From positions 1 through 53,147 of the forward strand of contig JAJRSX010000079.1 in NCBI GenBank assembly GCA_024278555.1: 53,147 bases of DNA, read 5' to 3'. The notes beneath the pieces were generated by a model. That model ran no database searches. It had not been told where the DNA came from and saw nothing but the letters and a program-made list of their open reading frames with translations. This stretch comes from a bacterium. GTDB taxonomy: Bacteria; CG2-30-53-67; CG2-30-70-394. Numbering within the stretch: position 1 is the stretch's first letter; each line of letters starts with the position of its first letter. Positions 5,501 through 51,999 of the stretch are shown here, one piece after another. A program made the position numbers and the translations under genes.

Positions 5501-5575
5501 CGGGGGCGGGAGGCGACGCGGATGGCTCGTCGCCGGGAGCTGTCCGCCGCCGGCCGTGGCTGGCAAGATCGCCCC

Positions 5576-7114
5576 ATGGAGGAGGTCGCCGCCTTTCACA
5601 ATCCGCCGCGGGTGCGCCTCCTGCGCAGCTTTGACCGCCCCTTTGCCTCGGTGGTGGAGGCGGCGCGCACCTGCTATGCGGCCAAGGGGGTGGTGGAGGG
5701 GGGGGAGGTAGGGGAGCGCGGTGAGGCCCTGGCGCGGGACCTCTACCGGGCCGGCCACCACACCACCTTTCAGCACGCCTACTTCCAGTTCGCCGTCGAG
5801 GGGGTGTCGCGCCAGGCGATCTGGTCCCTGCTCCACGCCCACCCCTTCTACAACTCGGAGCAGGTCTCCCAGCGGTACGTGGCGGTGGCCCCGGAGGCGT
5901 GTCTCCTGCCGCGCCTGGCGCCGGCCGCGGAGGCGCGTTTTCGCGGCTGCCTGGCGCTGCAGATGGAGGCCTACCGCGACCTCACCGAGCGCCTCGCCCC
6001 GGTGGCGGCGGCCGCCTACTTCGACCGCTTCCCCGGTCGCGCCAAGGCGCCCGACCGGTACGCCACCGCCCTCCGCCGCCGTGCCCAGGAGGCGGCCCGC
6101 TATGTCCTGCCCCTGGCGACCACCGCCCACCTGGTCCACACCATCTCCGGGCTCACCCTCCTGCGCTACCAGCGCGCCTGCCTGGAGCCGGACGCGCCGG
6201 CGGAGCAGCGGGCGGTGGTGGCGCAGATGGTGGCGGCGGTGGTCGCGATCGACCCGGCCTACGAAGCGGTCCTGGAGCCGCCGCGGGGGTGGGAGGCGCC
6301 CCCCGCCGCCGGGGCGGAGGTCGACCGGCCACGCGCCCGCGCCTTCGCTGCGGAGTTCGATCGCCGCCTCGAAGGCCGCGTCGCCCACCTCGTCTCGGCG
6401 CCGCCGGAGAACGGGGCGGTGACCGCGGCGGCGGTGCGCGAGGTCCTCGGCCTGCCCGCCGGGGCGCTCTCCGACGCGCAAGCGATCGAGCTGCTCCTCG
6501 CCCCGGAGAGGAACCCGCTGATGGGCGAGCCGCTGAATCTCCACACGATGGACAAGCTCGGCCGCTGCCTCGCCCACGCCCACTTCACCTTTGCCAAGCG
6601 GCTCTCCCACACCGCCGACTCCCAGGACCAGCGCCACCGCGCCACCCCGGCCTCGCGGCCGGTCCTGGCGCGCCACTACACCGGCGAGCCCGACTACGTG
6701 ACCCCGGCCCTGCTCGCCGAGGCGCCGGCCGCGGCGGCGCGCTACCGCGACACCATGGAGGCGACCTGGGAGGCGATCGAGGCGCTGCTGGCCGACGGGG
6801 TGGCGCCGGAGGTCGCCCTCTATCTGCTGCCGAACGCGGTCAACCTCCGTTTCACCGAGTCCGCCGACCTCGGGGCGCTGCACCACAAGCACCGGATGCG
6901 GCTGTGCTACAACGCCCAGGAGGAGATCTGGCGGGCGTCGCTGGAGGAGGCGTTGCAGATCCGCGCGCTCCAGCCGGAGCTCGGCCGCCACCTCCTGCCG
7001 CCGTGCACCCACCGGCTGCACGCCGGGGTGAAGCCGATCTGCCCGGAAGGAGAGCGGTACTGCGGGGTGCGCGTCTGGCGGCTGGCGCTGGAGGGGTACG
7101 AGCGGGTGATCTAG
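5576..7114 (+). CDS. thyX: FAD-dependent thymidylate synthase, tandem double ThyX domain
   Basis: GHHTTFQH and SEQVSQRY in N-half; QRHR, YLLPNA, RLCYNAQEEI in C-half. Confidence 0.75.
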   Translation: MEEVAAFHNPPRVRLLRSFDRPFASVVEAARTCYAAKGVVEGGEVGERGEALARDLYRAGHHTTFQHAYFQFAVEGVSRQAIWSLLHAHPFYNSEQVSQRYVAVAPEACLLPRLAPAAEARFRGCLALQMEAYRDLTERLAPVAAAAYFDRFPGRAKAPDRYATALRRRAQEAARYVLPLATTAHLVHTISGLTLLRYQRACLEPDAPAEQRAVVAQMVAAVVAIDPAYEAVLEPPRGWEAPPAAGAEVDRPRARAFAAEFDRRLEGRVAHLVSAPPENGAVTAAAVREVLGLPAGALSDAQAIELLLAPERNPLMGEPLNLHTMDKLGRCLAHAHFTFAKRLSHTADSQDQRHRATPASRPVLARHYTGEPDYVTPALLAEAPAAAARYRDTMEATWEAIEALLADGVAPEVALYLLPNAVNLRFTESADLGALHHKHRMRLCYNAQEEIWRASLEEALQIRALQPELGRHLLPPCTHRLHAGVKPICPEGERYCGVRVWRLALEGYERVI

Positions 7115-43741: not shown

Positions 43742-43892
43742 GAGCGGGGTTGTACCCGCGGAACAGGCCCCAGCTTGAGATCGGGGTGCCTGCCGCGCTA
43801 TCTGCGGATCGCGGTTGGCGAGCGAGCGCCTCGAGCGGATCCGCGTCGGGCCTGCCGCGCTGCGCGCGGATCGCGGGTGCCCCCGCTCCTAC
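43738..43892. repeat. REP doublet supplying both flanking TAG stop codons
   Basis: GTAGGAGCGGGGTTGTACCCGCG at 43738 and TCGCGGGTGCCCCCGCTCCTAC ending 43892. Confidence 0.75.
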
Positions 43893-45025
43893 AGGGTGCT
43901 TTCCTGCACCCGGATCGGCTCCTTGATCTTCAGGAGGCGTGCCTGGTTGTGGAGCCGGGCGATGACCGCGGCGGTGATCCGGTGGCCGGGGGCGAAGAGG
44001 AGGCGGCCATCGTCGGTCTCGATCGGGGAGAGGAGGGTCTGGCCGGGAGAGAGGCCCATCACCCCCACCTCGGACACCTTGGTTGTTTGGCCATCGGCCG
44101 ACGATTGGGCCGCCACCACTACCCGCGGGTCGAAGCGCCCAGACTGCTCTGCCAGCCGTTGCACCGCGTCCGCCCGCTCGACTCCACGACCGGTGAGGTC
44201 GGTGACCGCGGTCGCCACCTGCAAGATGCGCGCGGCGATCGGGATCTCCTCGCCGGCGACGTCGTCGCGTGGGAAGCCGGACCCCTCGAACCGCTTATTC
44301 TGATACAGGATCGCCTCCGCCACGCCGCCGAGGCGCGGGATATTGGAGAGCATCCGGTGGGCCGCCTCCGGCAGCCGCTCCACCATCTCCGCCTCCTCAT
44401 CCGAGAGGGCAGCCCCGCTGCGGACCTTGGCGAGGGTGTCGGGGGGCAGGGTGACGTTGGCGATGGGGGCGAGCATGGTCGCCACCTCCGCCTCCCACGC
44501 ATCGCCCACCCCGAGGGTCTTGGTCAGGTTCGCCGCCTCCTCGCGGGCCGCGAGTGACCGGTCGAAGGAGTCCGGGTCGACCATCGTGAGGATGTCGGCG
44601 ACGAGCTGGATGGCGCCGTTGAGGGTCTCCTCCAGGACCCGCCGCTCGGCGGTCTGCCGGCGGTGGAGCTCTAGGGCGGCGTCCAGAGCCTCGGTAAGGG
44701 TCTCCGGCGGGCACGGTTTGGTGAGAAAGCGAAAGACCTGGCCGCGGTTCACCGCCTCCTGCGCGGTCTCCTGGTCGGCATTGCCGGTGAGCATGAGGCG
44801 TACCGTCTCCGGGGAGCGACGACACACCTCGGCGAGCAGGGCCACGCCGTCCATCTCCGGCATCCGCTGGTCGGAGACAATCACCGCAAAGGGGCCGCTC
44901 TCCAGGAGCTGCAGCGCCTGCTCGCCGCCCAGGGCCGTCTTGATGCGAAACCGCTTGCGCAGGTGGCGCTGGAAGCCGGAGAGGATATTCGCCTCGTCAT
45001 CGACCAGGAGGATGCGTTCGCTCAT
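43889..45025 (-). CDS. Response regulator with degenerate HD-GYP-like domain
   Basis: LLVDDE, SDQRMP, LTKP; LAPIANV in place of LHDIGK, GSGFP, IPIAARIL. Confidence 0.88.
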   Translation of the reverse strand: MSERILLVDDEANILSGFQRHLRKRFRIKTALGGEQALQLLESGPFAVIVSDQRMPEMDGVALLAEVCRRSPETVRLMLTGNADQETAQEAVNRGQVFRFLTKPCPPETLTEALDAALELHRRQTAERRVLEETLNGAIQLVADILTMVDPDSFDRSLAAREEAANLTKTLGVGDAWEAEVATMLAPIANVTLPPDTLAKVRSGAALSDEEAEMVERLPEAAHRMLSNIPRLGGVAEAILYQNKRFEGSGFPRDDVAGEEIPIAARILQVATAVTDLTGRGVERADAVQRLAEQSGRFDPRVVVAAQSSADGQTTKVSEVGVMGLSPGQTLLSPIETDDGRLLFAPGHRITAAVIARLHNQARLLKIKEPIRVQESTL

Positions 45026-46257
45026 GGGGTGGCAGCCTCCGCCTTCACCTCCGCTTCAGCGACGGTGGAGGACGCCTCGATCCGCTCCCGCCACGCCTCC
45101 AGTCGATCCGCGAGCCCCGCCTGCTCCAGGTACGCCTCATCTATCTCACCGGCATAGCGGGTCGGGTGGTCGGTCGGGGTCGCCCCCTCCAGGCAGTTGA
45201 CCACGTGGACCGCGGCCAGGGGGGTGAAGCCGTCCGACGGACATGCCTCCGGGCGGTGGTGGAAGGCGACCGCCTCGACAATCCCGTCGGGCAGCCCCCA
45301 GAGGCCGAGGAGGTAGGCGCCCACCTCGGCGTGGGTGGTACCGAAGACTTGGCGCTCGGCGGAGAGGAGATCGCGCTTGCCCCCGTAGACCATTCCCTCC
45401 ACCTCGGCGTATGGCGCTGGCAGGTTGACCCGCAGGATCATCTTACCCAGGTCGTGGAGCAGTCCGGCCATGAGTGCCTCCTCGCCGATCTGCTTCTCGC
45501 CGCTCTCCGCCAGGGCGATTTGTTTGGCCATCGTGCCCACCGCCAGGCTGTGGCTCCACAACGCCTCGATGGGGAAGTGGTTACCGGTCGCCTCCTTGAG
45601 CTCGGCGAAGACGTGGACCGACAGAACCAGGGCGGTGATCGTCTCCAGCCCGAGGAAGCTCACCGCCTCGCGGGCGTCCGAGACCTCGCGCCGGAGGCCG
45701 AAGAAGGCCGAGTTGACGAGCTGCAACACCTTCGCGGCCATCGCCGGCTCCTGGCCGATCACCTCACCCACGGCGGCGAGCGAGGCTTCGGGCTGTTGCA
45801 GGACCTCGACGATCTTCTGGTAGAGGGTGGGTAGGGAGGGGAGGGTGGTCAGCCCCGCGGCGAGCGCCTGGAGCTGTCCGTCGGCGAGCAGCTCGCGAAG
45901 GGCGAAGGCGCGCTTGAGGGTGGCGCGCAGGAGGTCCGGGTCGCACGGCTTGGTGAGGTACTGGTGGGTCGGTCCCACCGACTTCATCACCAGCTCCAGC
46001 TCCGAGTGGCCGGAGAGGATGATCCGCACCGTCTCCGGGTAGAGCTCCTTCATCCGCCCGAGGAGCTCGGCGCCGTCCATCCCCGGCATCCGCATGTCGG
46101 AGACGACCACGTCGAAGGGAATCTTCGTCAGCATGTCGAGGGCCTCCTCGCCGGACTCGGCAAAGGCCATCTCCCACTCCTTGCGCTGGGAGCGGAGCTG
46201 TCGCTTCAGTCCCGAGAGGATGTTCGGCTCGTCGTCAACGAAGAGGATGCGTTTCAT
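45022..46257 (-). CDS. Response regulator with HDOD domain
   Basis: VDDE, SDMRMP; LPSLP, VNSAFFG, LWSHS, GLLHDLGK, LWGLP, FHHRP. Confidence 0.92.
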   Translation of the reverse strand: MKRILFVDDEPNILSGLKRQLRSQRKEWEMAFAESGEEALDMLTKIPFDVVVSDMRMPGMDGAELLGRMKELYPETVRIILSGHSELELVMKSVGPTHQYLTKPCDPDLLRATLKRAFALRELLADGQLQALAAGLTTLPSLPTLYQKIVEVLQQPEASLAAVGEVIGQEPAMAAKVLQLVNSAFFGLRREVSDAREAVSFLGLETITALVLSVHVFAELKEATGNHFPIEALWSHSLAVGTMAKQIALAESGEKQIGEEALMAGLLHDLGKMILRVNLPAPYAEVEGMVYGGKRDLLSAERQVFGTTHAEVGAYLLGLWGLPDGIVEAVAFHHRPEACPSDGFTPLAAVHVVNCLEGATPTDHPTRYAGEIDEAYLEQAGLADRLEAWRERIEASSTVAEAEVKAEAATP

Positions 46258-46480
46258 GGCTCGCTTCGCTCTCCAGGGGTTAGGGAATAGGGATTAGGGG
46301 TGGTGCCGGCCTGCGGCCGGCGATGATCTTGGGCTCGCTTTGCTCGCGGGGGGTGGGTGGGGGGATGGTTGGCCGCTTGCGCGGCCAAATGGTTCATTCG
46401 GTTGGGTGGCTTCCATCGGCATCTCTGTCCAGCCCGGAGGGCTGACCTTCCCTAGCCCCTAGTCCCTAACCCCTATTCCC
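46258..46480. repeat. Intergenic element with TAGGG/CCCTA periodic ends, copy 2
   Basis: TAGGGAATAGGGATTAGGGG ... CCTAGCCCCTAGTCCCTAACCCCTATTCCC; shares internal motifs with 3344-3500. Confidence 0.65.
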
Positions 46481-48470
46481 TGGGGGCCGAGCCCCCCCCC
46501 AGCGGCAGCCGGATCACGAACACCGTTCCCTTGCCCATCTCGGTCTCGAAGGTGAGGGTGCCGCCGTGCTTGTCCACCACCACCGAGTGGGAGATGGAGA
46601 GCCCCTGGCCGGTCCCCTTGCCCACCTCCTTGGTGGTGAAGAAGGGGTCGAAGACCCTGGCGCGGGCATGGTCGGGGATTCCACTGCCGGTGTCGCGGAT
46701 GCGGATCTCCACCCACGGGCCGTGTTGGCGGCTGGTAACGGTGATCTGCCCCTTGTCGCCCGAGTCGCCCACCACGTCGCGGATCGCGTGGGCGGCGTTG
46801 ACAATGATGTTGAGGAAGACCTGGTTGAGCTCCGCCGCCAGACACAGGACCGGCGGCAGGTTGGGGTCGAGGTCGGTGGTCAGCTCCGCCACGTATTTCC
46901 ACTCGTTGCGCGACACAGTGATCGTCGATTCGATCTGCTTGTTGAGGTCGGTGGGGTGCTTCTCTGCCTGGCTCGGGTGGGAGAACTCCTTCATTGCCGC
47001 GACGATGGTGTTGACCCGCTCGATCCCCTCCAGGGACTGGTGGATGGCGGTGGGGATCTCGTCGTTCAGGTAGTCGAGGTCGGCCTCCTCGATCGCCGCG
47101 TCGGTCGCGGCTACCACCTCCGGGGCGAGGGTGCCGGTGCGTGCAGCCTCCAAGAGGGTCTGGAACTGGGTGAGGAGGGTGGTGAGGTCGGTGAAGGCCT
47201 CCTCCAGGAAGCGGATGTTGTCGCCCACGTACTGGGTGGGGGTGTTGATCTCGTGGGCGATGCCGGCGGCGAGCTGGCCGATCGACTCCAGCTTCTGCGC
47301 CTGCGAGAGCTGGCTCTCCAGGTGGCGGCGGTCGGTGATGTCGGAGGCGAGGAGGAGGCACCCCTCGGCCCTGCCATCGCTGCCGGTCACCGGCGTGAGG
47401 GTGATGCCGAGCAGGCCGTCGCGGCCGTCGGGACGGACAAAGAAGACGTCGTCGAGGCGGAGGGGCTTCCCTTCGGTGACGCACGTAGCCACCGCCTCCT
47501 CCATCTTCATCATGTGCCAGAGGATGCGACACTTCTTGAAGGGGCGGCCGACTACCTGCTCTGCGGCGATCGCGAAGGTGTGCTCCGCGGCCGGGTTCCA
47601 CTGGCTGATCCGCCCGTCGTCGTCGACCCCGATGAGGATCGACGGGATGGTGGCCAGCAGCAGGGTGTTGGCGCGGTGGGCCCTGTGCAGGGCCTCCTCT
47701 GCCGCCTTCGCCTCGGTGATGTCGTTCTTCACCGCCAGGTAGTGGGTGGTGATCCCCGCCTCGTCGCACAGGGGTGAGATCGACACCTGCTCCCAGAAGA
47801 GGGTGCCGTCCTTTCTGCGATTGCACAGCTCGCCGCGCCACTCCTTGCCCGCGGTGATCGTCGACCAGAGATCCTCGTATACCTCTGGTGCCATGTTGCC
47901 CGACTTCAGTACCCGCGGGTTGCCGCCGAGCGCCTCGTCGGTGGTGTAGCCGGTCACCTCGGTGAACCGCTGGTTCACGTACTCGATGGTCCCTTCGGTG
48001 TCGGTGATCACCACCGACGCAGGCGACTGCTCCACCGCCTGGACGTATCGGTCGAGCTCCTCGCGGGTCTGGCGCGCCTCGGTGATGTCGGTGAGGAGCA
48101 CGGCAATGCTCCCTGCCGTCCCGTCGTTCACGATGGGGTGGCGGTTTACCTCGAAGAGACGATCTCCCGCCGGCGTCGGCCAGGTCTCGGCAAAGACCAC
48201 CGGGACCTGCTCGGCGAGGGCCATCCGGTCCCACTGCTCGGCCCCCTCCGCGAGCTCGGCGGGCAGAAGATCGGCGTCGGTGCGTCTCACCACCTCCTCG
48301 GGGGTGAGACCGAGGAGGGCGCAGAAGGCGGTGTTGGCGATCTGGTAGACGAGCCCCTCATCCTTGACCGCCATCGGCAGCGGTGACAGGTTGAGGAGGG
48401 CGTGGAGGAGGGTGCAGCCGCTGATGCTCGACTGGCGGCAGGTGGTTCGATGGGCTGTGGGATCGGCCAT
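46473..48470 (-). CDS. Cytoplasmic multi-PAS NtrB-type histidine kinase
   Basis: Three PAS/PAC domains, QKLESIGQLAAGIAHEINTP, FDPFFTTKEVGKGTGQGL. Confidence 0.93.
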   Translation of the reverse strand: MADPTAHRTTCRQSSISGCTLLHALLNLSPLPMAVKDEGLVYQIANTAFCALLGLTPEEVVRRTDADLLPAELAEGAEQWDRMALAEQVPVVFAETWPTPAGDRLFEVNRHPIVNDGTAGSIAVLLTDITEARQTREELDRYVQAVEQSPASVVITDTEGTIEYVNQRFTEVTGYTTDEALGGNPRVLKSGNMAPEVYEDLWSTITAGKEWRGELCNRRKDGTLFWEQVSISPLCDEAGITTHYLAVKNDITEAKAAEEALHRAHRANTLLLATIPSILIGVDDDGRISQWNPAAEHTFAIAAEQVVGRPFKKCRILWHMMKMEEAVATCVTEGKPLRLDDVFFVRPDGRDGLLGITLTPVTGSDGRAEGCLLLASDITDRRHLESQLSQAQKLESIGQLAAGIAHEINTPTQYVGDNIRFLEEAFTDLTTLLTQFQTLLEAARTGTLAPEVVAATDAAIEEADLDYLNDEIPTAIHQSLEGIERVNTIVAAMKEFSHPSQAEKHPTDLNKQIESTITVSRNEWKYVAELTTDLDPNLPPVLCLAAELNQVFLNIIVNAAHAIRDVVGDSGDKGQITVTSRQHGPWVEIRIRDTGSGIPDHARARVFDPFFTTKEVGKGTGQGLSISHSVVVDKHGGTLTFETEMGKGTVFVIRLPLGGGSAPRE

Positions 48471-49078
48471 TACGATTTCCTGACGGGAACCGCCCCCGGC
48501 GCCCGGCGGTCCACCGCCCCTACCGGCCACTGCTCGGCGAAGGTGTCGACGGTGAAGGTGGCGATCTCCGTCCCCGGCCGCCGCCAGAAGGCGGCGCCGA
48601 GGCCGCACCGTTCGCACGCCCGATCGAGGATCCCGGGGAGGGTGGAGACGGCCGTGGTGAGGGCCGGCGGCGGCAGGACCAGGCGGCGGTCGTCGTCTTC
48701 GATGACCACCCCGTGGTGGCCGGGGACCACCGCCGCCTCAACGCTCCCGGCGGAGAGGGGGATCGGTTTCGAGGCGATGGAGATCTCCAGGGTGTGGTGG
48801 GCCACCGTCTTGGCGGTGACCGGCTGCCCCTGCGGGTGGCGGCCGAGGAGGATGGCGGCGTTTACCGCCGCCTCCACCACGGTTGGCGGGTCGTAGAGGA
48901 CCCCCATGGCGCCCCGGTGGGCGTGGTCCGGGTAGGTGTAGAGGCTCACCCACATGGCACGGCGGATCTCCATGCCGTCGGGCGGTTCCGGCGGCGTGCA
49001 CTCGATATTATCCTCGACCCACAGGGTGAGGGCGGCGCGTGCCAGTCTGAGCAGGTAGGACCCGTCGTCGATCTCCAT
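48470..49078 (-). CDS. Divergent AMMECR1-domain protein
   Basis: LLRLARAAL, WVSLY, HRGAMG (cf. LRGCIG), LEISI, PGHHGVVI, ACERCGL, FAE. Confidence 0.75.
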   Translation of the reverse strand: MEIDDGSYLLRLARAALTLWVEDNIECTPPEPPDGMEIRRAMWVSLYTYPDHAHRGAMGVLYDPPTVVEAAVNAAILLGRHPQGQPVTAKTVAHHTLEISIASKPIPLSAGSVEAAVVPGHHGVVIEDDDRRLVLPPPALTTAVSTLPGILDRACERCGLGAAFWRRPGTEIATFTVDTFAEQWPVGAVDRRAPGAVPVRKS

Positions 49079-49210
49079 GACTCCTCTCTTCGTCGAAAGG
49101 CGCGGGTGGCAGTAGAGAGGCAGACAGCACCAGCCGCCCACCCCGTTCACCGGCCCAGAAAAAGGGGCCAGGACCCTTTTTATCGCTCGTCGGAAGGGTA
49201 TGTAGCCGTT

Positions 49211-49254
49211 GCTGACCGCTGACCGCTGACCGCTGACCGCCTACTTCCTACTTC
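49211..49254 (+). repeat. Heptamer tandem repeats
   Basis: (GCTGACC)x4 then (CTACTTC)x2. Confidence 0.85.
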
Positions 49255-49279
49255 GCGCGTGCGGGTACACTCCGGCGCC

Positions 49280-50338
49280 ATGATCGACACCCTCCTCGTG
49301 GACTGGTCCGGGACCCTCGCCGACGACCTCGGCGCGACCCTCACCGCTACTAACGCGGTCTTTGCCGCCTACGGCGAGCCGCCCCTGGACCGCCCCACCT
49401 TCCAGCGCGAATTCGAGCTCCCCTTCATGCGCTTTTACGGCCGCTTTCTGCCGGGCCGTTCGCGCGAGGAGGTGGACGCGTGCTTCTTCGCCGCCTACGA
49501 GCCCTTGCGCCACCAGGTCCCGCTTCTACCGGCGGCGCGGGCGCTGCTCTCCTTCGCCCACGACACCGGTATTCGAGTCCACCTCTTCTCCACCATGCGG
49601 CCGGACCTGCTGGAGGCGGAGGTGGAGCGTCTCGAACTCGCGGAGCTGGTAGACGGCGTCCACGGCGGCGTCGGCGACAAGCGGCAGGCGATGGCGCCGC
49701 TCTTGGCGGAGCTCGATGCCCGCCCCGACGCCACCGTGTTCGTCGGCGACATGGTCCACGACGTGGAGGCGGCACGGGCGGCCGGGGTGCGGGCGGCGGC
49801 GGTGGCCACCGGCTACACCGGCCGCGCCGCCCTCGCCGACGCCCACCCCGACTACCTCTTCGATGACCTCGGCGAGGTGGTGGCCCTCCTGGCCCGCGAC
49901 GGCGGGGTCGAGCGGCTGGCCATGCCGATCGCCACGGTGGGGGGGCTCATCGTCCACGACGACGGCGAGCTCCTCCTGATCCGTACCGCCAAGTGGTCGG
50001 GAAAGTGGGGGACGCCAGGGGGCAAGATCGACTACGGGGAGACCATGGAGCAGGCCTTCCTGCGCGAGGTGGCGGAGGAGACCGGCCTGGTGCTCACCGA
50101 CCCTGAGATCCTCCTGGTGCAGGAGGCGGTCTTCTCCCCCGAGTTCCACACCAAGAAGCACTTCCTCCTGGTGAACCTGCGCGGGAGCGCCCACACCAAG
50201 GCGGTGCGCCTCAACTACGAGGCCCAGGACTACGCCTGGGTCACCCCGGAGGCGGCCCTGGCCATGGAGCTCAACGAGCCGACCCGGGTGCTCATCGAGG
50301 CGGTTTTCGTCGGCGACGAAAACCGAGCTGAAAGGTGA
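49280..50338 (+). CDS. HAD phosphatase-Nudix hydrolase fusion
   Basis: DWSGTLAD, FST, GDK, VGDMVHD; Nudix box GGKIDYGETMEQAFLREVAEETG. Confidence 0.9.
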   Translation: MIDTLLVDWSGTLADDLGATLTATNAVFAAYGEPPLDRPTFQREFELPFMRFYGRFLPGRSREEVDACFFAAYEPLRHQVPLLPAARALLSFAHDTGIRVHLFSTMRPDLLEAEVERLELAELVDGVHGGVGDKRQAMAPLLAELDARPDATVFVGDMVHDVEAARAAGVRAAAVATGYTGRAALADAHPDYLFDDLGEVVALLARDGGVERLAMPIATVGGLIVHDDGELLLIRTAKWSGKWGTPGGKIDYGETMEQAFLREVAEETGLVLTDPEILLVQEAVFSPEFHTKKHFLLVNLRGSAHTKAVRLNYEAQDYAWVTPEAALAMELNEPTRVLIEAVFVGDENRAER

Positions 50339-50344
50339 TTTGTG

Positions 50345-50713
50345 ATGGCTGACAAGATCCAGATTCACGACCTCGCCGTCGACTGCGTCATGGGGATCCA
50401 CCCGTGGGAGCGGCAGCACGCCCAACGCCTCTTCATGGACGTGGAGATGGCGTTCGACGTGCGCCCCGCGGCGGCCGACGACGACTTCACCAAGACCGTC
50501 GACTACGACGCTGCCTCGCAGGGGGTCGAACGGATCGCGGTGGAGTGGCGGTTCCGGCTCATCGAGACCCTCGCCGAGCGGGTTGCCGCGTGGCTCCTGG
50601 AGACCACCCCGATCGATGCGGTCACCGTGCGGGTGCGCAAGCCGCAGGCGTTGAACAGGGCGGCGTGGGCGGGGGTGGAGATCCACCGCCGGCGCGGCGA
50701 GGGCGGAGGGTGA
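50345..50713 (+). CDS. folB: Dihydroneopterin aldolase
   Basis: MGIHPWER, QRL, TVDY, LIETLAERVA, VRKP. Confidence 0.92.
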   Translation: MADKIQIHDLAVDCVMGIHPWERQHAQRLFMDVEMAFDVRPAAADDDFTKTVDYDAASQGVERIAVEWRFRLIETLAERVAAWLLETTPIDAVTVRVRKPQALNRAAWAGVEIHRRRGEGGG

Positions 50714-51432
50714 GGCGGGTCGCTCTGGTCACCGGCGCGGCCCGCCGCCTCGGCGCGGCCATCGCCCGCCACCTCGGGGGTGCGGGCTACGCCACCGTCG
50801 TCCACTACCGCGAATCGCGGGAGGCGGCGGAGGCGGTGGCGGGGGCGATCCGCGCCGCCGGCTCCGAGGCGTGGTGTATGGCCGCCGACCTCACCGTCGA
50901 GGCTGAGGTGGCCGCCCTGTTCGAGGAGGTGGCGACGGTAGCGGGCCGGCTGGATGTGGTGGTGAACAACGTCGGCACCTACCAGGTGAAGCCGGTGGAC
51001 GAGCTCACCCCGGCGGACTGGCGCTACGTGGTCGACGGCAACCTCACCGCCACCTTCCACTGCTGCCACTTCGCCCTGCCGCACCTGCGGGCCAGCGCCC
51101 CGGGCGGCCGGATCATCAACCTCGGCTACGCCTCCTGCGGCCGCATGGTCGCCCGACCCCGTGCCGCCCACTACCAGCTCGCCAAGACCGGGGTGCTGCT
51201 CTATACCCAGGCCCTGGCCAAGGCGGTTGCGGCCGACGGGATCACCGCCAACTGCCTCTCTCCCGGCCACCTGGAAAACTCGGTGGACCTCCCGGAGGAC
51301 CCCGCCGCCATCCCCGCCGGCCGCCCGGCCGCCGAGGTGGACGTGCTCGCCGCCCTCGACTACCTGCTCTCCGACGGCGCCGCCTACGTCACCGGCCAGA
51401 ACCTGGAGGTCGCCGGCGGGTTCAACCTGTGA
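50710..51432 (+). CDS. Pteridine reductase/FolM-like SDR
   Basis: TGAARRLG, VVHYRES, YQLAK, VTGQNLEVAGG; overlaps folB stop. Confidence 0.8.
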   Translation: MRRVALVTGAARRLGAAIARHLGGAGYATVVHYRESREAAEAVAGAIRAAGSEAWCMAADLTVEAEVAALFEEVATVAGRLDVVVNNVGTYQVKPVDELTPADWRYVVDGNLTATFHCCHFALPHLRASAPGGRIINLGYASCGRMVARPRAAHYQLAKTGVLLYTQALAKAVAADGITANCLSPGHLENSVDLPEDPAAIPAGRPAAEVDVLAALDYLLSDGAAYVTGQNLEVAGGFNL

Positions 51433-51483
51433 TGTTGGGCGGCGACCGTACCGGGCTACGGGACCCGACGCCGAACCTCGACG

Positions 51484-51999
51484 TTAGTGGTGGTGCTCTC
51501 CCGCCGGGGGCGTGGCGAGGGCGGGGAACCGCTGGGTGGCATACCGGGTGTGGCAGCCCACACACCCCTCCATGAGCCGCTGGAGGTAGAAGGTGACCAC
51601 CTCTCCGTTACCCGCCTCCGCGGCGTGGGCCAGCATGCCCGCGGTGTGGTGAAAGGCGCCGTCCATCTCCCGGAACCGTGGCGGCAGAGTGCGGTGCAGC
51701 TCGTGTCGCTGCCGCGGGGAGAGCCGCTGCTTCATGATGAAGCTGTCACGGATCTCCCGGCCCGTCGCGGCGACCTCCTCCCACTTGCCCGATGCGATCG
51801 CCGGGATGAGCCCCTTCATCCCGGCCTCGATGGCGCGCATCTCCTGCCTGAGGATCTTCGCCACGCCGGGGGAGAGGCGGAGCTCTGTCGCCGCCGGTGA
51901 GGAGCCGGAGTGCTCGTGCTCGCCCGCCGCGCTGTCTGCCGGCGCGAGGGCAAATGCCAGGATCCAGAGAGAACAGAGCATCGAGAGAGCTGTCTGCAT
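51484..51999 (-). CDS. Secreted class II (four-helix) c-type cytochrome
   Basis: Signal peptide, helical body, C-terminal CVGCH. Confidence 0.75.
   Translation of the reverse strand: MQTALSMLCSLWILAFALAPADSAAGEHEHSGSSPAATELRLSPGVAKILRQEMRAIEAGMKGLIPAIASGKWEEVAATGREIRDSFIMKQRLSPRQRHELHRTLPPRFREMDGAFHHTAGMLAHAAEAGNGEVVTFYLQRLMEGCVGCHTRYATQRFPALATPPAGEHHH

Follow-up and report, generated by a model that had tools for sequence, protein, structure and literature searches.

Which enzyme removes the last phosphate from dihydroneopterin monophosphate on the way to folate? In 2007 this step was credited to unspecific phosphatases (PMC1971073), and a review from 2022 still draws 'a phosphatase (Pase)' in its place (PMC9544542). 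The question is raised again by a stretch of 53,147 nucleotides (nt), hereafter the window, that comprises positions 1 to 53,147 of contig JAJRSX010000079.1 in assembly GCA_024278555.1, from a bacterium of CG2-30-53-67; CG2-30-70-394. Three open reading frames (ORFs) on the + strand at 49259-51432, virtually unspaced in the ORF list, encode a protein that joins a HAD domain to a Nudix domain, the dihydroneopterin aldolase FolB, and a short-chain dehydrogenase/reductase (SDR). The fusion protein very probably works in folate synthesis, in its pterin branch, right beside FolB. In the specific form that we consider probable, its Nudix domain would convert dihydroneopterin triphosphate to the monophosphate, and its HAD domain would remove the last phosphate for FolB; both substrates, as well as the order of the two steps, we infer from gene linkage and domain fusion alone.

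A sequence-only reading of the window had described a HAD-Nudix fusion, folB, and an SDR gene at 49280-51432, and all three elements are present there (Table 1). The longest ORF of the fusion gene (49259-50338, +) encodes 359 amino acids (aa) and opens at a GTG at 49259. Translation likely starts at the ATG at 49280 (MIDTLL), which is also the beginning of close homologs such as P0002; residue numbers below nevertheless follow the 359-aa form. The folB start lies 3 nt past the TGA of the fusion gene, in the identical reading frame, and the GTG of the SDR gene overlaps the folB stop (GTGA). Chance does not explain this arrangement: all domains score above their curated cut-offs, and hundreds of loci show the same organization.

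Table 1. Coordinates of the proposed pterin-branch operon, its domains, and the features that flank it upstream.
Feature	Position (nt)	Strand	Details and basis
HAD-Nudix fusion gene	49280..50338	+	352 aa from ATG at 49280; Pfam, NCBIfam
HAD domain	49283..49894	+	residues 9-212; Pfam
Nudix domain	49928..50296	+	residues 224-346; Pfam PF00293
folB, dihydroneopterin aldolase	50342..50713	+	123 aa; PF02152, TIGR00525
FolM/PTR1-type SDR	50710..51432	+	240 aa; GTG start, TGX3RXG, NCBIfam
Tandem heptamers	49211..49254		GCTGACC x4.3, then CCTACTT x2.1; perfect repeats; Tandem Repeats Finder
AMMECR1-family gene	48470-49150	-	PF01871 52.2 bits; divergent, bounds operon upstream

How far is the operon conserved? 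The linkage of the fusion to folate genes, set beforehand as the test of the proposal, was followed in two collections of loci, and it held. In genome contigs, with one genome per species, 533 stretches encode a relative of the fusion protein, and the best 80 were examined; these are 39-45% identical and almost all labelled Verrucomicrobiota, although the taxonomic labels of metagenome-assembled genomes may be wrong. A further 80 loci came from metagenomes, and in all loci ORFs were read from stop to stop rather than with a gene caller. A same-strand FolB gene lies downstream of the fusion in 64 of the 80 genome loci (63 of them within ~500 nt, with one, L050, 2.2 kb away) and in 69 of the 80 metagenome loci, including 68 of the 74 in which the contig continues for at least 400 nt past the fusion. 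Taken over both scans, this same-strand adjacency holds in 133/160 loci. The phylum of the window bacterium comprises 14 genomes, and within it the fusion is found in 5/5 genomes of family f1, with folB as the next gene in 4/4 relatives of the window. Where carrier genomes were checked, the adjacent folB was the only FolB match, accompanied by a single HPPK gene elsewhere (12/12 genomes), and four of the five genomes in which the fusion lies away from folB have a lone folB elsewhere. In the sister family f2, folB sits between a leucyl-aminopeptidase-like gene (pepA) and folK, as read by eye from the translations; in the f2 loci L095-L099 a deoxynucleoside-kinase-like gene follows folK, and the guanine-plus-cytosine content is ~55%, against ~70% in the window.

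The other neighbors show no such constancy. DciA, a ferredoxin, and a subtilase recur beside the fusion, as do ORFs with no Pfam match; none is folate-related and none is conserved. FolK, FolP, and FolE were not found within ~6 kb in any of the 160 loci by single-sequence phmmer, which may miss distant copies. In four loci with no folB after the fusion (L008, L045, L046, L055), the convergent downstream gene begins, by eye, like IMP dehydrogenase/GMP reductase, a guanine-nucleotide enzyme beside a gene for a GTP-derived pterin.

The tie between the HAD domain and FolB extends to single polypeptides. In cluster P0001 (90% identical, 488 aa, three member sequences), a tryptophan replaces the TGA of the window, giving one HAD-Nudix-FolB chain; HAD-Nudix and FolB share one ORF in 0/168 loci, and this cluster alone has the form. 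Longer fused forms were absent among proteins of 630-2000 aa at E <= 1e-10, a weak piece of evidence. A family-profile search in an even sample of 121 genomes from the phylum of genome G022 identified 17 carriers of the HAD family (E <= 1e-40). Ten of the 17 encode a single-ORF HAD-FolB fusion of ~336 aa that has the DWSGT motif and lacks the Nudix domain, and three have HAD-Nudix followed by folB. In one further genome FolB follows the HAD immediately but in a different frame, and in the remaining three the HAD stands alone, with FolB encoded on a separate contig. All three fusions submitted to Pfam showed the HAD-FolB architecture, and nothing closely related to the Nudix domain is present in the 14 HAD-only genomes (best match, 36 bits). 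FolB is present in all 17 carriers, but also in 114 of the 121 genomes overall, so that 17/17 would arise by chance with a probability of ~0.36 and tells little. With one HAD-FolB protein as query, 5097 of the 8000 protein clusters scored reached E <= 1e-20; 118 of the 120 matches listed carry HAD plus PF02152, and some are named 'HAD hydrolase-like protein [Akkermansia sp.]'.

Both architectures have in common the signature D15, W16, S17, G18, T19, L20, D22, D23, N32, F52, P55, and Y60, continued by K141, G163, D164, H167, and D168. Judged from these sequences, it is the HAD domain that is most tightly coupled to FolB, with the Nudix domain as an optional addition. The idea of the HAD as a mere servant of the Nudix reaction is weakened because HAD-FolB fusions exist without Nudix, and coupling of this kind is expected of an enzyme that makes the substrate of FolB. 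The three standalone DWSGT HADs (L196, L197, and L198, from genomes G123, G141, and G069) lie beside a LOG/'lysine decarboxylase'-family gene and a gene for a bifunctional homocysteine S-methyltransferase/MTHFR, another folate-dependent enzyme.

What kind of enzyme is the HAD half? It scores above the cut-offs of PF00702 (50.9 bits), PF13419 (45.7 bits), and PF13242 (48.9 bits), and its fold is that of subfamily IA, with a helical cap inserted. Motif I reads D15-W16-S17-G18-T19 (nt 49301-49315); S111 constitutes motif II, K141 motif III, and G163-D164-x-x-H167-D168 motif IV. The nucleophile D15 is invariant in the 118 aligned HAD-Nudix proteins and in 117/117 HAD-FolB proteins, and the same is true of K141, D164, and D168. 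Among the HAD-Nudix proteins, position 111 is S or T in 118/118, D23 is invariant, and D22 and H167 are almost invariant. At position 17, 105 of these 118 have S and 13 have A, and 117/117 HAD-FolB proteins have S; D never occurs there, which bears out the suggestion in the sequence-only reading that DWSGT marks a subfamily. The nearest solved HAD homologs have DLDGTL at the DWSGTL site. We speculate that the aromatic residues W16, F52, and F59/Y60, invariant in the cap and at the +1 position, would suit stacking of the pterin ring. Phosphonoacetaldehyde hydrolase (PhnX) has a DWAGT motif and a Schiff-base lysine in its cap; a PhnX-like identity was tried and rejected, with only 23 bits against TIGR03351 (cut-off 218.9), and there is no invariant or nearly invariant lysine between motifs I and II of the aligned family.

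The Nudix half scores 74.2 bits against PF00293, above the cut-off, and its Nudix box is complete: G255-x5-E261-x7-R269-E270-V-x-E273-E274-x-G276-L (nt 50021-50089). G255, E261, R269, E270, E273, and E274 are invariant in 118/118 sequences, and G276 is nearly invariant. Against the NudB model NF006961, the fusion reaches 25.5 bits with a cut-off of 103, a narrow model that only E. coli passes among 14 control genomes. No gene of the window genome or of the 12 carrier genomes checked passes the cut-off, which says little with so narrow a model; of the five Nudix-domain genes in the window genome, the fusion itself has the best NudB score (24.8 bits). A search of a large protein collection returned 289 homologs, of which 119 of the 120 listed carry PF13419 plus PF00293. 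Source names among the listed homologs include Nitrospirae, Pseudomonadota, Immundisolibacter, Akkermansiaceae, and Luteolibacter pohnpeiensis, and the annotations are generic ('phosphoglycolate phosphatase', 'ADP-ribose pyrophosphatase YjhB').

An AlphaFold2 model built on the 118-sequence alignment (mean predicted local distance difference test score 93.5, predicted template-modeling score 0.73) consists of a capped HAD domain, a helical linker at residues 204-219, and a Nudix domain. Foldseek placed the HAD half with phosphatases of the COG0546/phosphoglycolate phosphatase (PGP) type, with target-normalized template-modeling (TM) scores of 0.82 for 2ah5 and 0.87 for 3mc1, and the Nudix half with NudI, Ndx1, MutT-like proteins, and plant NUDX1 (target-normalized TM 0.73-0.85). 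A profile search of the PDB matched Arabidopsis NUDT1 at E 1.4e-10. Neither Foldseek nor the PDB sequence profile search found a solved structure with both domains.

The downstream genes and the rest of the genome define the pathway in which the fusion would act. The folB product has bit scores of 108.3 with PF02152 and 86.7 with TIGR00525 (cut-off 72.15), and its nearest solved sequences are the bona fide dihydroneopterin aldolases 3o1k, 2o90, and 1nbu. A FolX identity was rejected (NF008418, only 41.1 bits with a cut-off of 152). The assembly (3.06 Mb, 211 contigs) is rated 100% complete and holds one FolB-family gene, that of the window, together with one HPPK (FolK), one DHPS (FolP), and one GTP cyclohydrolase I (FolE), all on different contigs; the extra pterin-binding protein besides DHPS is MetH-sized. 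The window folB must be the housekeeping aldolase of the de novo folate pathway because it is the sole FolB-family gene beside FolE, FolK, and FolP. Neither a DHFR_1 domain (PF00186, FolA) nor a Biopterin_H pterin-dependent aromatic amino-acid hydroxylase was found in this genome. Its only ThyX match lies in the window, in a 530-aa ORF at 5522-7114 (+) with two tandem Thy1 domains (5615-6256 and 6557-6961); a ThyX doubled or fused in this way is uncommon and agrees with a folate economy that lacks FolA.

The SDR has the motifs TGAARRLG, which fits TGX3RXG, and YQLAK (YxxxK). TGX3RXG is typical of PTR1/FolM, and folM-like genes are predicted pteridine reductases (PMC1971073). The best NCBIfam match is NF012208, the TmpR dihydropteridine/dihydrofolate reductase model (245.5 bits, under the cut-off of 325), followed by a FabG subfamily (158.6 bits); FabG reductases are on top among PDB sequence matches, and the TmpR/FolM likeness is separated by NCBIfam only. 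A FolM-type SDR is a natural stand-in for FolA because the genome has no DHFR_1, and the protein is probably the dihydrofolate/dihydropterin reductase of this folA-less genome. The tight linkage to a pteridine-reductase-like SDR that had been proposed holds in the window, where the two genes overlap, but the SDR is not a conserved partner across loci. It follows folB in the window, in two of the four family relatives, and in three of the 80 metagenome loci (L106, L107, and L108, with the same TGX3RXG motif), and in none of the 80 mostly verrucomicrobial genome loci. Even inside the genus its presence in the operon varies, because in the same-genus genome G010 (L088) a Cys-rich ORF, not an SDR, follows folB.

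These observations suggest the following scheme, in which the three genes would form a pterin-branch folate operon. FolE, encoded elsewhere, would make 7,8-dihydroneopterin triphosphate, from which the Nudix domain would release pyrophosphate to leave the monophosphate, the role of FolQ/NudB. The HAD domain would move the last phosphate onto D15, with Mg2+ held by D164/D168 and the phosphate bound by K141 and S111, and the aspartyl-phosphate would then be hydrolyzed. Candidates for the proton donor that would replace the second motif I aspartate (Asp+2) are the invariant D23, H167, or the substrate's own hydroxyl and pterin groups. The freed dihydroneopterin, which is prone to oxidation, would be cleaved by FolB, to which the HAD is fused or translationally coupled in many bacteria, and the SDR would be the FolM-type reductase of an organism that has ThyX but not FolA. 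Whether the DW[S/A]GT HAD is the first dedicated dihydroneopterin-monophosphate phosphatase, with a substitute proton donor and a product handed straight to FolB, we regard as evenly balanced.

Several observations weigh against this scheme, above all those on motif I. It is DW[S/A]GT in all 235 proteins examined, and the aspartate that is absent, Asp+2, is the general acid/base of HAD phosphatases (PMC8069645). The monophosphate has an alcohol leaving group, which normally requires protonation, and the loss of Asp+2 argues against a textbook HAD phosphatase mechanism. The matches of both halves, in structure as in sequence, are generic, with no hint of the substrate and no specific likeness to a folate enzyme. 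For instance, the HAD half is phosphoglycolate-phosphatase-like in a general way (Gph TIGR01449, 51.9 bits with a cut-off of 180), the Nudix half is closer by score to NudI and MutT-type entries than to plant NUDT1, and the 60 PDB sequences listed for the fusion do not include E. coli NudB. The family is also patchy, being absent from 9/9 genomes of the sister family f2 and present in only 17 of the 114 FolB-bearing genomes of the 121-genome sample. An adjacent folB is missing from 16/80 genome loci and 11/80 metagenome loci, some of which are cut off shortly past the fusion (one of the 16 ends 108 nt past it). Related genomes share ancestry, and the linkage counts therefore overstate the number of independent events. 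Finally, the DW[SA]GTL pattern served as the seed of both scans for loci, so motif conservation inside the scanned loci is by construction; the 118-protein alignment and the 121-genome profile search were not seeded in this way. The sequence-only reading, in which one polypeptide performs both steps with a dedicated HAD phosphatase, is supported by the folB linkage and by the HAD-FolB fusions, which as Rosetta stones speak directly for its HAD part; the missing Asp+2 limits that support. We hold the specific reading at no more than probable because motif I never has this residue.

Other explanations of the same locus have to be set beside this one. The missing Asp+2, which protonates alcohol leaving groups (PMC8069645), would be accounted for if the HAD hydrolyzed only pyrophosphate or the anhydride bonds of tri- and diphosphates, with the last phosphomonoester left to unspecific phosphatases; weak likeness to HAD-type pyrophosphatases (43.8 bits against the PpaX model NF009804, and a match to the 3qu4 family at E 2.4e-8) points the same way. 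We consider this unlikely, as the scores of the PpaX (cut-off 218) and BT2127 types are far under their cut-offs, the HAD stays fused to FolB in genomes where the Nudix domain has no close relative, and the fusion puts the HAD beside the substrate of FolB, not beside pyrophosphate. If the lost aspartate meant instead that the HAD domain were catalytically inactive, a binding, scaffolding, or regulatory module for FolB, it would be hard to see why D15, K141, D164, and D168 are invariant in both architectures and S/T111 in the HAD-Nudix proteins, an invariance expected under selection for catalysis; this has very little probability in our view. The same is true of an enzyme for general nucleotide house-cleaning, which would combine a MutT-like pyrophosphatase with a nucleotidase and whose position next to folB would be meaningless. 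Its appeal lies in the top Nudix likenesses (NudI, MutT, and Ap6A hydrolase types) and in the names given to homologs at their source, but the same-strand adjacency to folB persists while other neighbors vary, and direct FolB fusions exist.

Two further alternatives accept the link to FolB and change the reaction. FolB might cleave the monophosphate directly, leaving glycolaldehyde phosphate for the HAD to dephosphorylate. At family level the HAD is most like phosphoglycolate phosphatases, whose substrates are C2 phospho-acids, and DW[A/S]GT resembles the motif of phosphonoacetaldehyde hydrolase, another C2-aldehyde enzyme. The fusion to FolB would suit a step after FolB equally. A database label, 'dihydroneopterin monophosphate aldolase', is attached to an archaeal protein (PMC5041015). 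We nonetheless judge this distinctly unlikely: the window FolB passes the cut-off of the bacterial folB equivalog and has ordinary aldolases as its nearest solved relatives, the PGP and PhnX-like scores are far under their cut-offs, and the invariant cap lysine of the phosphonatase type is missing. Alternatively, the cluster might make a non-folate reduced pterin, in the manner of the FolX/FolM tetrahydromonapterin branch, with the fusion as the phosphatase of that branch. A FolB-family gene together with a TGX3RXG reductase is the signature of this branch, and folM-like genes are predicted pteridine reductases, as noted above (PMC1971073). However, the genome encodes FolE, FolK, and FolP with a single FolB-family protein, which scores above the folB cut-off but below that of FolX; the genome yielded no pterin-dependent hydroxylase; folate itself needs a FolM-type dihydrofolate reductase where FolA is lacking; and the fusion does not keep the SDR as a partner across loci. 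This, too, seems very unlikely, and we return to the two-step HAD-Nudix enzyme in the pterin branch as the preferred explanation.

The surroundings of the operon add little to this picture. The heptamer repeats sit in the 129-nt divergent intergenic region between the AMMECR1 and HAD-Nudix genes, and may be a regulatory or slippage-prone element. The AMMECR1 protein scores 54.8 bits against the model of AmmeMemoRadiSam system protein A, under the cut-off of 99. Downstream, the operon is bounded by a convergent ORF with a weak Pfam match to cytochrome c'. Within 49000-51700, a promoter consensus scan found no sigma-70-like site, and a terminator scan found one terminator-like site, inside a coding region, with no excess over shuffled sequences. 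Near upstream, a row of signaling genes at 43889-48617 (-) encodes a histidine kinase with a triple PAS (714 aa), a response regulator with HDOD and HD domains (411 aa), and, as the third gene, a response regulator with an HD_5 (HD-GYP-like) domain (378 aa); no link of this row to folate genes was found.

If the two-step scheme is true, the pterin branch of bacterial folate synthesis would lose its last enzyme gap, and a drug-targeted pathway would gain one more identified step that is specific to bacteria. New annotations could be given to thousands of genes that now go by 'HAD hydrolase-like protein' or 'phosphoglycolate phosphatase', and folate pathway reconstructions would improve for Verrucomicrobiota, including the Akkermansia-labelled proteins, and for the small phylum of the window bacterium. 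A working HAD phosphatase without Asp+2 would also be of mechanistic interest. The HAD is fused to FolB or encoded directly before it in hundreds of loci, which opens the phosphatase question to ordinary enzymology. The FolM-type SDR of the operon would account for reduced folate in a ThyX organism without FolA; the window genome is a fusion carrier outside Verrucomicrobiota, with a three-gene form that includes this reductase. A full-text search, outside of which most subscription journals and supplements fall, found no publication on a HAD-Nudix or HAD-FolB folate enzyme, nor on a dedicated dihydroneopterin-monophosphate phosphatase.

How does the operon compare with known systems? FolQ (YlgG) of Lactococcus lactis, NudB of E. 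coli, and Arabidopsis NUDT1 have the Nudix fold and complete Nudix box of the window protein, and the reaction proposed here, triphosphate to monophosphate plus pyrophosphate, is the same, as is the linkage to folate genes; FolQ of L. lactis, for instance, lies in a folKEPQC cluster (PMC1971073). Unlike these enzymes, the window Nudix domain forms the C-terminal half of a protein with two domains, and it is not an ortholog of NudB, as its low score against that model indicates and as NudI and MutT types score higher. PMC1971073 lists FolQ, FolQ2 candidates of the HDIG type, and a FolQ-FolB fusion in Parachlamydia sp. UWE25, and names no HAD in the text available. The Parachlamydia protein joins a pterin-branch phosphohydrolase to FolB (PMC1971073, Table 2), as do P0001 and the HAD-FolB proteins; it differs in having a FolQ-type domain with no HAD mentioned, a comparison drawn from that table alone.

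The HAD half shares its fold, cap type, motifs II-IV, and nucleophilic aspartate with the COG0546/PGP-type HADs (2ah5, 3mc1, 2nyv). It departs from them in having DW[S/A]GT rather than DLDGT, in its scores far under the PGP cut-offs, and in a cap with its own invariant set, N32, F52, P55, and F59/Y60. The FolX/FolM tetrahydromonapterin branch of E. coli and Pseudomonas, to which a reference title in PMC5041015 refers and whose folM is discussed in PMC1971073, likewise combines a FolB-family protein, a TGX3RXG reductase, and a dephosphorylation step with no enzyme assigned. In contrast to that branch, the window FolB is the sole copy and of the aldolase type, in a genome without FolA and without pterin-dependent hydroxylases, and for these reasons the operon most likely serves folate itself.

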